Of a stretch of DNA of 64,000 bases, positions 9,805-59,340 are shown piece by piece. This stretch comes from Sphyrna mokarran. Taxonomy: Eukaryota. The stretch spans positions 17,174,001-17,238,000 of the forward strand of contig JAGIQG010000029.1 of the NCBI GenBank assembly GCA_024679065.1. The letters run 5' to 3'. The notes under the pieces were generated by a model that saw only the letters and a program-made list of their open reading frames with translations, was not told the DNA's origin and made no database searches. How positions within the stretch are numbered: the stretch's first letter is position 1; each line of letters begins with the position of its first letter. A program made the translations under genes and the position numbers.

Positions 9805-10245
9805 CAAATTTCCATTCAGGACATACCATCCTGACTTGGACATTTACTGCTGTTCCTCCATTGCCGCTGGGTCAAAATCTTGGAACTCTCTATCCATCAG
9901 CACTGTAAGAAGTCTCACAACAGCAGATTAAATTCAACAGGTATATTTGGCATTACAAGCTTTCAAAGTGCTGCTCCTTCATCAGGTGAATGCAGGTGAA
10001 GGAGTAGCGCTCTGAAAGCTCGTGATTTCTAACAAACCTGTTGGCCTTTATCTGATATTGTGAGACTTCTAACTATGCCCACCCCAGTCCAACGCTGGCA
10101 ACTCCACATCACAACAGCACTGTGGCAGTACTGTCACTGCACAGACTGCAGCAATTTTGTGGTGGAGACTCACTGCTACCTTCTCCAGGGCAATAAGCGA
10201 TGAGGAATAAATGCTGGCCTTACCAGTGACACCCTCATCATATTT
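9805..10245 (+). mobile_element. LINE 3' tail fragment interrupted by a fold-back insertion
   Basis: gggtcaaaatcttggaactc...cagcactgt [insert] ggcag...ccttctccagggcaat...aataaatgctggcc; same tail family as 43850 and 26020. Confidence 0.65.
9907..10111. mobile_element. Fold-back Penelope-like non-autonomous element with hammerhead motif (family A)
   Basis: Inverted arms around about 9990; 12-bp TSD catcagcactgt (9895-9906) / caacagcactgt (10112-10123); CUGAUGA...GAAA core on the minus strand at 9954-9988. Confidence 0.7.
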
Positions 10246-17944: not shown

Positions 17945-19570
17945 AACAAGCCAAATGATATGCTAGCATTTGTTGTAAAAGAGTTGGAGTACAAGAGGAA
18001 GTTCTGATATAATTATATAGGTTTTTGGTGGGACCACACCTGGAGCACCATGTACATTGCTTGCTCTAGAGTCAATTATAAAGGATATAAAAGACACCTA
18101 GAAAATATCAATGGGATTAGACAAAGTCAACATGGATTTCTGAAAGGGAAATGATGTTTGAAAAACCTCTGGAGCTTTCTAGAGCATGTAAAAGTAGAAT
18201 AGATAAAGGTGAAACATGGATAAGATATATTTGGATTGTTGGAAAGCTTTTGATGAAGTCCCACCTACGATGATAGTGTGCAAAATTAAAGTGCATCTGA
18301 TTAGGGGTAATATACTAACATGGATTAAGAATTGGTTGGCAGACAGGAAAGAGAGACTAGAAATAAATGGGTATTTTTCAAAGTGGCAGGCAGTGACTAC
18401 TAAAGTCCCACAGGGATCAGTGTTTGGGCCCCAGCTATTCACAATATACATCAATGATTTGGATGAGGGAAGTAAAATATCTCCAAGTTTGCTGACAAGA
18501 AACCTGGTGGGAAGGTGAATGGTGGGGAGGATGTTAAGAGGTTTCAAGGTGATTTAGGTAAGTTGAGTGAGTGGGCAAACACATGGTAGATGCAGTATAA
18601 TGTAGATAAATTTAAATGGTTTACTTCAGATGGAGAAACAGGGTGGCAGAATATTAATTAAGTGGCAATAGTTTGGGAAATGTTGATGTACAGAGAGACT
18701 TAGGTGTCCAAGTACACCAGTTATTGAAATCAAACATGTAGATATAGCAAGAAATTAGGAAGGGAAATGGTATGTGGGCCTTCACTGCAACACAACTTCA
18801 GTACAGGAGCAAGGATTCATTACTGCAGCTTACAGCACCTTAGGAAGACCACACCTAGTCTATTGTGTGCAATTTTGGTTTTGTTATCTAAGAAAGGATA
18901 CACTAACTTAGAGATTCATCAGACTGCTTCTTGATTGTCGTATGAGGAGAGTTTGGGTTGACTGGGTCTGAATTAACTGGAATTTAGAAGAATCAGTGGA
19001 GATCTAATTGAAATGTACACAGTTCTGACAAAGTTGTACACACTAGATGCAGGGACGTTGTTTCCTTTGGCTGTGGGACATAGAACAAAGTGTCATACTC
19101 TCAAGATGAGGGTAGGCCATTTCTGACTGAGAAGAGGAGAAACTTATTCACTCAGAGGTTGGAGAATCTGTGAAATTTTCTATCATAGAAAGCCATCAAG
19201 GCTAAGTTACTGAATATATTTGAAGAGGAATACATTTAAGAAGGAATTAGATTTATAGACTCTAAAGTTTTCAAAGGCTATGGGGACAACATGGAAGCAT
19301 GACATTGAGATAGTGTATCACCCATGATCATAGTCAATGGTAGATCTGATTCAAAGATTGAAATGCCCTCTTTCTGCCCTTATTTTTTTCTGTTTTTAGA
19401 AGGAGTGCAATTAACTTCCTCTAGATTGATTCCTGGGATAGGAATCATGTATGAGGAGAGCTTAAATAGAGTGGGAGTGTTCTCTGGATTTAGGAGAATG
19501 AGAGATGATCTCATTAAAATGGAGTTAAAATAGAAGATCAACTTGGAGGGTCATATGGCTCACGTGTTAT
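17945..19570 (+). mobile_element. Older CR1 fragment split by a nested CR1 insertion
   Basis: CR1 ORF2 sequence (gaccacacctggagcac...aaggatata) stops at about 18093 and resumes at about 19397 (ttagaaggagtgcaa...gagagatgatctcatt). Confidence 0.6.
18094..19395 (+). mobile_element. CR1 LINE, 5'-truncated, degenerate RT and 3' tail
   Basis: IYLDCWKAFDEVP...WIKNWLADRKERLEING.FSKWQAVT.KVPQGSVFGPQLFTIYINDLDEG are CR1 RT motifs; frameshifted; tail at about 19370-19395. Confidence 0.9.
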
Positions 19571-21975: not shown

Positions 21976-22900
21976 CATACTAATATAGCTATCTTGAGAT
22001 TTGATTTTGTTCTAAAAAGACAATCTTGACAAGGTATCTGCATTGGCATGCTGTTCTGATCTCTGAATCTTGATCTTATAATTATGTGCTGACAATATCA
22101 ATGTCCTCTTTGTAAATGACTTGTAGTTAATGATGAAATTCCCTGGTATGGGCCAAAAATGGTTGTCAACAGCCTGTGGTCAGTCAACAAAGTAGGTTCT
22201 CTGCCATACAGGTACTGGTGAAATTGTTTAATGCCAAAAAGATTGTTGAGCGCTCCTTTCTCAAGGTGTGCATAGTTTTCTTCCTCACTCAATAATGATC
22301 ATGACGCGAACGTTATTGGCTGTTCCTCTCTAATTGCTATGAGAGGCAACAGTACCCATCACATGCTAGTTGAATTTTCAACTCTGGGTGGACAAGTTAC
22401 TTCAGATTGCTGGAGCACATTTTTAATTCCTTTATACACATTTTCACACTCTTTCCTCCAATTCCATTGTTGGTTAACACACAATAATGTATTAAGTGGC
22501 TTTTGTAGTATTGCAAGATTTAAAATTAACTTCCCATAATAATTGATTTGTCCCAAAGTGATCATAACTATGACATGTTCTGTAGTCTTGGCACTTCTAG
22601 GATTGCTGCCATTTTCTTAAATTCTTTGTGGAGGCCATCCTTGTCTGATACATGACCCAGATAGTTGTTGGATGATTTAAAAAAAATCACATTTTTCTTT
22701 CTTCACATGTTCCAGATGCTTCAGTGTTTACGCTAATTTGTGTAAATGTTCAGTTCTGCATGTGATTAGAATGTTGTCCAAATAACACTGGACACCACTT
22801 AAGATTTGGTTCCTTTGATTTCTGGGATATTGTCAGTGCCAATGTTATTCCAAATGGTAGGTGCTTATGTTGGAACTATCTCTTGTGAATAACAGTTCTT

Positions 22901-23200
22901 GATGAGGAGATGCCGGCGTTGGACTGGGGTAAACACAGTAAGAAGTCTCACAACACCAGGTTAAAGTCCAACAAGTTTATTTGGTAGTAAACACCACTAG
23001 CTTTCGGAAAGCTGTTCCTCCGTCACGTGAGTGGAGAGTTCGAATCACAAACAGAGCATATGAAGGTACACACAGTTTACAGTATTCTGTAAACTGTCTG
23101 TGCCTTATGCCCCGTTTGTGATCAGAACTCTCCACTCACCTGACGAAGGAACAGTGTTCTGAAAACTAGTGGTGCTTACTACCAAATAAATCTGCTGGAC
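22901..23200. mobile_element. Fold-back Penelope-like element with hammerhead motif (family A), inserted in the Gypsy RT
   Basis: Arms 22966-23082 / 23087-23200 with a 4-nt loop; 13-bp TSD aataacagttctt (22888-22900) / agtaacaattctt (23201-23213); CTGACGA...GAAA at 23140-23164. Confidence 0.8.
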
Positions 23201-24542
23201 AGTAACAATTCTTAACAGTGGTTGTGTCTCAGTTGTCACCCTGATTTGGAGGTATGCCTAGGCACGTTTACCTTGCTGAATTGTTGACCACCAGTCAGTC
23301 CAGCAAAGAGGCCCTCGATTAGTAGCAAGGGGTACTGGTCGTCATATAGTACTGGACTTATCATTGTCAGAAAGTCCTCACAGATATGTACAAAACCATC
23401 AGATTCAATAACTGGGACAATTCATTGTTTCAGATTCAATCACTCTATCCTTGACTAATTTTTCTAGTTCCACTTCTATCTTTTGTTTAATTGCATTAGG
23501 CACAGTTCTTGTCTTGAAACATCTTGGGTTGCTATCAGGTTTTATCTTAAGCTTTGCCTCCACTCCAATCATGGATCCTAGGATATTCTTGAACACTTTT
23601 GTATATTTCTCCAGAAGTTTTGGTGCCATGTTCTTGCTGGAAACTAGTTGTTAATTCTTCCCCAGTTCAGCTTGATTTTGTGTAATTGTGCTCTTTCAAA
23701 GAGTGCAGGAAAATTTCCCTTTATTATGTGCAAAGGCAATTTTGCTGTTTGACCAATAGGTTTTACTTGAACCATGATATATCCTTTCAGCAGATTACCT
23801 TCACAATGTAGATTTGCAAGATTAAGTTTGACAGTTTATTAAAAAGTATTTAAGCTTCAGATTGTATATATTTTCTGGAAGAAGTGATATAGCAGCTCCC
23901 AAGTTTACTTCTTGTCCATTTAACTTTGGATAAACTCAGAACTTTTGTGTATCCTCTTTCATGGACAGGGCACCTAACTTAAGTTCTTGGATCTTTTTTA
24001 GGTCGGTATCATCTTGGAAATTTTTGTCCTCATCAGATATTTTGTAGACCACTTTTTCAGATCATGTGTTCTTGCATTTGCAAGGCCGGAGAAGTCTGTC
24101 GAATCCTACATGCTTTAGATATGTGTGGTCTTTCTTGCCACAGCTTCTACATTTATTTTCTCTACTCAAGATTCATGTGGAGCAGCCCGCTTGAGCACAC
24201 CTATGGCATGCTTGCATTTTAAGAGATTTCTTCTTGTCCGCTCCTATCTTGTGTACTTTGGCTCCAGCTCCAATTTTGGCAGCTTCTATTATGGCCAATT
24301 CCATGGACACCACAATCTCAATCGCAAGTTTTAATGTTAAAAGAGCTTTCGATTAGCAATCCTCTTTTAATTGCTTCATTTCGAAGTCCACAAATAAGTC
24401 TCTTTCAGAGAGTGTTTTTGAGGATTGAGCCAAACTCAGTTCTTTACTTTCACCTTCCCCCCATTGCCGGTTTTATCTTTAACAACTGAATTTTCATTGA
24501 AGATCCTTCTGAAAAACCTCATCATCGCAATCTTTATCTCGT

Positions 24543-57535: not shown

Positions 57536-57771
57536 CTTTCAGATGGTAATTCACTTTGGGATAGAAACTTGAACCTTTTCCCCTTTAATTATCTTCAGAA
57601 TTTAAATAACTTTGATGTATACTCTTCACCTTCGTTTGCAAAGTTGCATTATGCTAAGAGTAAAATAAAACTTTTTTTCAGCTTTTCTGAGACAGAAAAA
57701 CACCATAGTTCTGGGAGTACTGAGTTCTCCATAAGCTTTATCTACACAAGATATTATGAAAATTAGTTTAC

Positions 57772-57915
57772 CAGTGAACCTCCGCTGCTCAAAGAAATCT
57801 CGTAGAAACTGGGAGTCAGTGAAGAGTAGATCATACAGCTTGTCCACATTGACATGGAAAACTTCATTAATGTACTGTCGGCCATTGAGATCTTCATAGA
57901 ATGCTTGCACTTCTC
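57772..57915 (-). CDS. GRAMD1B: GRAMD1B exon (VASt/ASTER domain start)
   Basis: AG/GT bounded, 144 nt; EVQAFYEDLNGRQYINEVFHVNVDKLYDLLFTDSQFLRDFFEQRRFT. Confidence 0.96.
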
Positions 57916-59340
57916 CTGCAGTGAGGAGATGTGAAAATAAAATTAGACATAAATTAATCCAACATCGAAAAACAAAACACTATACAACCGGTGGAAGATT
58001 ATAGCAATAGCTTTGAGAGATGATGCTGATCATCAGTTAAATTCTCTTCATTTACATCCTGATTTAATGCATGGTTATAAAAGCTCAGCAACTAAATAGC
58101 CAAATGGTAGATCTGCTGCAGAGTGCTTCAGGCAATATCGTCTCCTCTTTTATAATTCAATCTAATCTCTTCCATATGTATGTTTGCTTAAAATATTTCT
58201 TGTAGGGTCCTTTATCAGTCAAATTAACAAAAACTCTTCTACTCCAGCTCCTCATAGTTACTGAAGAAACAATTGGAATAATAAATTTGACATATATGAG
58301 ATGGGAGAAATACAAAAATATGACATTAGTATACACTATTATTTTCTTTGAGAGAGATGAATAATGATCCCAACTTGTTACTCATGATTGATAGTAACTA
58401 TCAGTGAACATTTTATTTATCAGTCTTGCATCTAATCCTGTAACCCACATAAAAATTATTTCTTTTAAATTCTGTACTGTCCAGTAACCACCATTCTGTC
58501 TTATTGCTTATACTCCACGAACGTTTGTGAAAATTGATTCTAACATGATTGTTTGAAGAAATGCTTTTTCTAAAACACTAACTTCTTGTTCTACTTGATT
58601 ATCATTTAATGATCCACATCATGTGTCAACTTTGGGGCTGACTGTAAATCAAGTAGAATGGGTCATGCACTACAAAAAGATTTAAAACAAAATAAATATT
58701 GCACTCGTGATATTGCGTCCCAATTTCTTTACACTCAAATCTGTATCAGCAACCTACATCTCACTTTGAAAGCAGCACAAATGCAACTTAATTTATTAAC
58801 AGCTATTGTTACATGCAGAAAAAAGTCCATTTTATTTGGAAGAAATTAAAGGGAACTTCAACCCCACTTAAAATTGGAAAATGTGAACAGTCTCCACGCC
58901 AAAGCAGCCTTTTAATTTGCTTATCATTTCATACTTGCAAAATAATTTCATGTCTCCAAAAAGTTAATGATGTAATGCTCTTTAACAAAAAGCTGCCTCA
59001 ATAAAAATATATTTTGCTTTGCCAAAAATGAGAATCCATCTGGGATGTCCTACACTTGATAAGGCTTGGATTCAAAACACTTGATGGAAGTGAAATTGTT
59101 ATGCAATTATTTAATAGGCACTGTGGGAGGAAGGGGAAAAGGAAGTAAAAATATTCAGTGACTGATTCTATATGATAATTATGCTCCATGTGTTTAACCC
59201 AAGGAACGAAGGGGTGAATCTTTGGTAATTGTGGTAAGAAATGTCCTGTCATGTTTTACCAAATGCATTACGGCCATTCTGTAACTAAACCATATGATTC
59301 TGAGGTCCCTGTGCTGAAGATGTAGGAAAAAATACAGGAC

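Follow-up and report, generated by a model that had tools for sequence, protein, structure and literature searches.

The insertion and its site

The window analysed here is a 64,000-nt stretch of contig JAGIQG010000029.1 of Sphyrna mokarran, and what interests us in it is a 300-nt insert at 22901–23200 composed of two copies of one sequence set head to head: two truncated end repeats (pseudo-LTRs), as argued below, of a Penelope-like element (PLE). The features at the locus, in window coordinates, are these.

~21981–24429, minus strand: decayed pol relic, presumably of Gypsy type, with many stops; the stub is inserted in its RT region
22888–22900, no strand: target-site duplication, left copy, 13 nt, reads AATAACAGTTCTT
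22901–23082, minus strand: long (tailed) arm, a 5'-truncated PLE pseudo-LTR, with the position of the ORF's ATG directly at its 3' end
22901–22937, minus strand: PLE 'tail', 37 nt, in the long arm only, counted between the ATG and the usual short end; there are two end classes
22995–23029, minus strand: minimal type I hammerhead motif, altered by C3G, A9G and a mismatch in stem II; cleavage predicted after 22998
23080–23086, plus strand: junction, a CAG overlap common to both arms followed by right-arm TATT
23080–23200, plus strand: short arm, without the tail: the other copy of the pseudo-LTR, which stops 65 nt ahead of where the ATG would be
23137–23171, plus strand: minimal type I hammerhead motif, core intact, with G10.1-U11.1 and the palindrome AGCU disrupted by a G to A change at 15.2; cleavage predicted after 23168
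23201–23213, no strand: target-site duplication, right copy, 13 nt, reads AGTAACAATTCTT

The two copies of the target duplication differ by 2 mismatches over 13 nt. When flanks were aligned one by one to 14 relatives of the interrupted element in the same genome, they overlapped by exactly 13 nt in 12, each of which has the 13-mer once; the remaining two are without the right flank. Translated from the minus strand, the flanks read ..LLRIVT and ..VIHKR, with many stops around them. The name Gypsy for this relic is our own presumption, from RT motifs. With that understood, the relatives and the flank translations bear out the preliminary description of a 300-bp insert, bounded by a 13-bp duplication with two mismatches, in a Gypsy RT.

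Laid against each other, the arms give 98 matches, 16 mismatches and one 3-nt gap (86% alike); a further 65 nt at the outer end of the left arm have no counterpart in the right. They had been described as inverted arms around a 4-nt loop. The arms stand; the loop does not, for the apex TATT (23083–23086) is element sequence of the right arm, joined to the left arm via the 3-nt CAG overlap. Uninterrupted copies read AATACTGATT past the junction point on the other strand, at 23 of the 36 places found. The short arm of the window ends ~28 nt earlier than the usual short end. From the majority state of 29 relatives the long arm differs at 10 of 182 positions and the short arm at 8 of 114, and the insertion is therefore old. 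Folded as RNA, the insert reaches -169.6 kcal/mol (z -17), as good as which none of 100 shuffles was.

Two other pieces of retroelement lie in the window. At ~9900–10111 there is a second, older PLE pseudo-LTR remnant, on both strands, with a degenerate minus-strand hammerhead near 9991, and at 18213–18515, on the plus strand, there is an RVT_1 fragment of another retroelement (E 9e-10).

The arms belong to a coding Penelope-like element

Searched with the left arm, the genome gave 2636 candidates, and identity is 87–92% in the 40 full-arm matches that were scored, not counting the window itself. A 26-nt anchor of the window type has 15,789 exact matches in the genome and 0 in the control. Longer copies run upstream into decayed GIY-YIG and RT on the same strand as the arm (L005 and L021, for example), and PLE ORF matches occur in 16 of the 29 closest loci, a few of them perhaps from neighbouring copies. 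The reverse test gives the same association: the arm lies ~1 kb downstream, on the same strand, in 14 of 19 independent loci fetched with RT (15 of 20 if the query's own locus is counted). The check proposed in the preliminary description, for copies attached to RT and GIY-YIG ORFs, thus finds the link from both sides.

A protein search turned up many open frames, up to ~900–1000 aa. One of these, an 893-aa ORF of a sister subfamily, has an RVT_1 match (E 1.2e-9) and a GIY-YIG match (E 4e-4) whose score of 21.1 is just below the Pfam cut-off of 22.6; Atlas neighbours at 0.98 carry RVT_1, HTH_animal and GIY-YIG. Ahead of WYIGET at residue 806 the same ORF has a C-x4-C-x2-C linker, CHSNLCKTC, at residue 755. 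A zinc-finger-like CX2-5CxxC linker between RT and EN is given in PMC8557442 as a mark of Neptune and Nematis, and the source element would appear to be a Neptune-type PLE, an assignment made from a linker that is also found in Nematis.

In intact sister copies the sequence that ends the window's left arm is followed directly by the ATG. A hammerhead follows the stop in all 10 intact-ORF loci and also precedes the ATG in 4 of them, which have same-strand repeats at both ends; the hammerhead would lie in the pseudo-LTR for the reason that it stands at either end of full-length tandem units. These intact-ORF copies belong to the sister subfamily, 74–79% alike in the pseudo-LTR, and among the open frames found none was an intact ORF of the window's own subfamily. 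The single ORF with RT and then GIY-YIG that characterizes EN+ PLEs is present in the family, then, and absent from the stub. From the continuity of the arms with RT and GIY-YIG, the adjacency to the ATG, and the hammerheads that flank intact ORFs, it follows that the arms are the pseudo-LTR of a coding PLE.

Several sister copies are young. L088 (2187–4868), L089, L090 and L095 have open ORFs of ~900 aa and same-strand hammerheads at both ends, ~3.0 kb apart. In L088, at ~1970–2045, donor-like, branch-like (TTCTAAT) and AG motifs can be picked out by eye upstream of the hammerhead, and might mark an intron of 65–70 nt; four presumed-RNA contig sets yielded no joint in support of it on the sister copy, and contigs of this kind are unable to show absence. 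For the window stretch no RNA source was listed.

The hammerhead, in the family and at the locus

In the majority state of the 29 relatives the hammerhead has an intact core, G10.1-C11.1, and AGCU-A, at every position. The intact 35-nt pattern has 47 exact copies in the genome and 0 in the control; a looser minimal-hammerhead pattern has 30,043 exact matches genome-wide and 0 in the reversed control. From the top of the list of 30,043, in genome order, we sampled 68 motifs in 60 loci, in which stem II takes 45 different sequences. Its third and fourth pairs, both at positions left free in the pattern, are formed in 43 and 29 of these 45 stems, against 26.9 and 16.7 when shuffled. In helix I, pair 2 is Watson–Crick in 28 of 38 (17.1 shuffled), switching between G-C and A-U, and pairs 1, 3, 4 and 5 are not above shuffles in the 68 motifs. 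A hand-picked alignment of 22 rows has 97.7% of its cells paired and 35 double changes against 11.4; these covariation counts, all of them, are inflated by the relatedness of the sequences. Just downstream of a PLE ORF end, most often by ~224 nt, stand 21 of the 68 sampled motifs.

An Rfam scan of the insert gave no hammerhead family at E<=10, only hairpin noise such as MIR869, and when four motifs were folded singly in short windows the result did not surpass shuffled sequence (z 0.26 to -1.21). Judged by sequence, the minimal type I hammerhead motif is real at the family level. It had been suggested from the two arms alone that a consensus would restore the CUGANGA/GAAA core and a palindromic AGCU, and that the motif would prove to be of the PLE type, with stem II covariation and a PLE link; the majority of the 29 relatives confirms the first, and the stem II pairs and ORF adjacency the second.

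At the locus matters are different. The readings first offered for the plus arm (23137–23171) and the minus arm (23029–22995) are correct as written, and both motifs are mutated, lie on opposite strands, and would be buried in a hairpin; going by these features, they are probably inert here. C3G, present in the minus motif, abolishes cleavage in an Anolis PLE hammerhead (PMC11167929). For the right arm, inactivity is only inferred, because its core is intact. On the minus strand at 23134–23143, the antisense of helix I and the start of the core matches the consensus splice donor CAG/GTGAGT, and does so within the subfamily.

The family to which these motifs belong amounts to a very large natural library of minimal hammerheads, accompanied by sister copies with open ORFs of ~900 aa.

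A single insertion rather than a discrete family

The preliminary description saw in the insert a short, non-coding, PLE-dependent family. The link to a PLE has held up; the separate non-coding family has not, since the arms are the end repeat of the coding PLE itself, insertion lengths are continuous, and the apex is unique. Head-to-head pairs are common among relatives, at 34 of 59, and their total lengths range without a break from 188 to 1672 nt, yet among 342 other loci fetched, 149 of which were picked for window-type sequence, not one has the window's apex. A discrete family would display numerous copies that agree in their ends and in their internal junction, and such copies were not found. 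What is found instead is the organization of PLEs: pseudo-LTRs that are partly tandem or inverted (4 of 10 intact-ORF loci, and 34 of 59 relatives), and a 30–40-bp tail at one end together with a target duplication (31 of 32 insertions are long/short pairs; the duplication is 13 nt in the window). Coding relatives, a long arm that stops at the ATG, the 188–1672-nt range and the unique apex lead us to read the insert as one insertion and not as a member of a non-coding family: an old, one-off, head-to-head pair of 5'-truncated ends of an autonomous Neptune-type PLE, to which we would give a probability of roughly 0.87.

Two other readings fall well behind this one. In the first, the insert would belong to a discrete, non-autonomous, retrozyme-like ribozyme family that moves as a fold-back unit by means of the PLE protein. 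Most copies are indeed very short, and 47 of the 68 sampled motifs have no adjoining ORF remains; retrozymes derived from PLE pseudo-LTRs have been reported, in one chondrichthyan genome among others (bioRxiv 10.64898/2026.07.22.740005), and pseudo-LTRs can act in trans (PMC3846280). Against these points stand the continuous lengths, an apex that does not recur among the 342 loci, and the sampled motifs, among whose 68 there is no tandem head-to-tail array, the sole same-strand neighbours being 1406 nt apart. Nor can the two motifs of the insert ever be in one transcript, because they face opposite ways, and the head-to-tail units with same-strand ribozymes by which non-LTR retrozymes are known are replaced here by opposite-strand motifs in a single insertion. 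The discrete, non-autonomous family is already largely refuted, and we regard it as highly improbable.

The second, co-option of the stub by the host as a source of hairpin RNA or as a regulatory ribozyme, is the least credible of all: a hairpin of ~120 bp would form were the stub transcribed, and a weak match to Pfam VASt (57629–57979, minus strand, E 1.4e-4, below cut-off) leaves an intronic window possible, but the arms are 14% diverged, their motifs have substitution rates like the rest of the arm, and the stub sits in a decayed retroelement. The VASt match may represent an exon of a lipid-transfer gene, by sequence resemblance, in which event much of the window would be intronic.

How the stub may have formed

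If the insert is a head-to-head pair of truncated PLE ends, then its relatives should tell us something of how such pairs arise. We compared arm ends in 32 head-to-head insertions, and junctions in the 32 of 36 hand-picked loci that were resolvable; the window junction was read by eye. In 31 of the 32 insertions an arm that ends at the ATG is paired with one that ends 27–58 nt earlier, mostly 35–44. A target duplication was found in 26, and is 12–14 nt in 18 of these. The untailed arm reaches further 5' in 20 of the 32, the tailed arm in 8, and the two are equal in 4. At the junctions, 17 of 32 overlap by 1–10 nt, 1 is flush, and 14 have extra bases. The 5' ends of the two arms are correlated (rho 0.47), and lie no more than 15 nt apart in 17 of the 32 insertions, against 7.4 by permutation.

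Two cDNAs primed on two nicks, and joined by a short overlap, fit these observations best. The GIY-YIG domain would nick both strands, 13 nt apart; of the two cDNAs, one would begin where the ATG is and one farther upstream, and each would stop after 120–180 nt; and their 3' ends, CAG and CTG, would then pair and prime the second strands. The hammerhead would be a passenger in all this. In full-length tandem units its cleavage would be that of a dimer formed by way of the palindrome AGCU. An Anolis PLE protein has been seen in vitro to nick and extend both strands, with two internal start sites that bound the tail (PMC11167929). Staggered double nick, two cDNA starts, and CAG/CTG annealing are, taken together, the course of events that we favour, with the confidence due to something somewhat better than an even bet. 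The early end of the window's short arm, by ~28 nt, is not something that two starts predict, and the 14 junctions with extra bases and the flush one also tell against joining by overlap.

The alternative is that a single cDNA snaps back on a CAG-AATA-CTG mini-hairpin and copies itself, and an endonuclease resolves the ends. The apex does fall on a natural 3-bp mini-hairpin of the element, the correlation of the arms' 5' ends (including the 17 of 32 within 15 nt) is what self-copying would give, and self-priming has been proposed from junction palindromes (PMC3846280). In the window, however, the loop belongs to the untailed arm, which is without the other arm's 65 nt and so cannot have templated them, and insertions whose tailed arm is the one that extends further number only 8 of 32. 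We think fold-back unlikely overall, and fold-back from the tailed cDNA we reject as the main route, both for the ownership of the window's loop and for those 8 in 32.

5' ends near the ribozyme

To see where truncated copies end we assembled a young set by means of an anchor downstream of the cut site: 101 copies, or 86 after removal of 2 duplicates, 1 internal deletion and 12 partner arms. Of these, 69 extend beyond the core, and 21 of the 69 have their end in the 25 nt that follow, where neighbouring rates lead one to expect 5.7 or 7.2 (P about 1e-7 and 4e-6, with those rates taken as known). In the older, window-type set 20 of 43 end in the same zone, in an alignment that is less reliable. 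This pile-up, 1–25 nt upstream of the core (loci L194–L272 and L275–L344), is a possible transcript start or RT pause. Upstream of the core, C is found at -7 in 59 of 68 motifs and A at -6 in 62 of 68; the conserved CA could be an initiator, or it could be the end of helix I. The junction of the window is 56–60 nt upstream of the core, outside the hot spot.

A peak of 5' ends at the predicted cut site itself is not clear. Of 146 ends, 10 fall within 3 nt of it; the young set contributes 7 of its 92, among which are one duplicate and one internal deletion, and the window-type set 3 of its 54. Such ends are not clearly more frequent than the adjoining rate, and so we claim no signature of cleavage in vivo. 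L203 and L210 share an unusual 5' junction one base past the predicted cut site; a compound element or a duplication may be the explanation.

It is tempting to put the pieces together. The stubs, which number tens of thousands in this genome, might record twin target-primed reverse transcription, with a stagger of 12–14 nt and a single cDNA begun at each of two start sites, in which both cDNAs often end at a natural 5' end of the RNA, or at a pause, immediately upstream of the hammerhead; we offer this tentatively, as an idea with the odds somewhat against it. If it is true, the ribozyme would be at the very start of the transcript. Given a family of this size with open ORFs among its sister copies, some familiar questions about PLEs—where the inverted ends and the tail come from, and what the ribozyme does—become testable, by junction statistics and by in vitro assays.

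Comparison with known systems

As here, EN+ PLEs show pseudo-LTRs set head to head and much shortened at the 5' end, a tail confined to one arm, duplication of the target, and, in full copies, an ORF with RT and GIY-YIG; an inverted, 5'-truncated copy together with a one-sided tail of 30–40 bp is described for PLEs by Schostak et al. 2008 (PMC2377424), Arkhipova et al. 2013 (PMC3846280) and Craig et al. 2021 (PMC8557442). The window departs from these examples in that both of its arms are too short to leave any ORF, and in that its short arm ends ~28 nt early; and the duplication is 12–14 nt here, as opposed to 8–10 bp in the A. vaga examples.

With the minimal hammerheads that Cervera and de la Pena 2014 (PMC4209133) describe from PLEs of metazoans, ours share the CUGANGA core, the extra base before G10.1, the G10.1-C11.1 pair, a palindromic 15.2/16.2, the want of a stable helix III, and a division into many subfamilies with compensatory changes. 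Hammerhead pairs on opposite strands, 100–700 bp apart, occur there likewise. The minimal hammerhead of that paper showed no cleavage in monomeric form and weak cleavage when dimeric (PMC4209133). Our 30,043 pattern matches compare with ~4,000 in coelacanth and ~9,000 in Xenopus in the same paper, from descriptors that differ. No shark is named in the text or supplements of it that were covered, and our search found no literature on shark PLE hammerheads, although supplements may list chondrichthyan motifs. Among the papers that a search for twin priming in PLEs brought up, the two terms were found together only in one review.

The Poseidon PLE of Anolis, PAc (Frangieh et al. 2024, PMC11167929), resembles our element in having a hammerhead in its end repeat, a tail bounded by two internal starts, and both strands of the target cut and extended. 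In PAc the hammerhead overlaps the ATG, whereas here it is ~130 nt before it, and RT starts 111–118 nt into the ORF, whereas the ends here are at the ATG and ~37 nt before it. Non-LTR retrozymes (bioRxiv 10.64898/2026.07.22.740005) are, like the insert, short, non-coding, furnished with a type I hammerhead and derived from PLE pseudo-LTRs; they are head-to-tail tandem units with same-strand ribozymes, in contrast to the single head-to-head event here.

PLE hammerheads, opposite-strand pairs and one-sided tails have, then, all been published already, and the locus itself matters little. The interest that is left is mechanistic, and lies in the pairing of tailed with untailed arms and in the pile-up of 5' ends.
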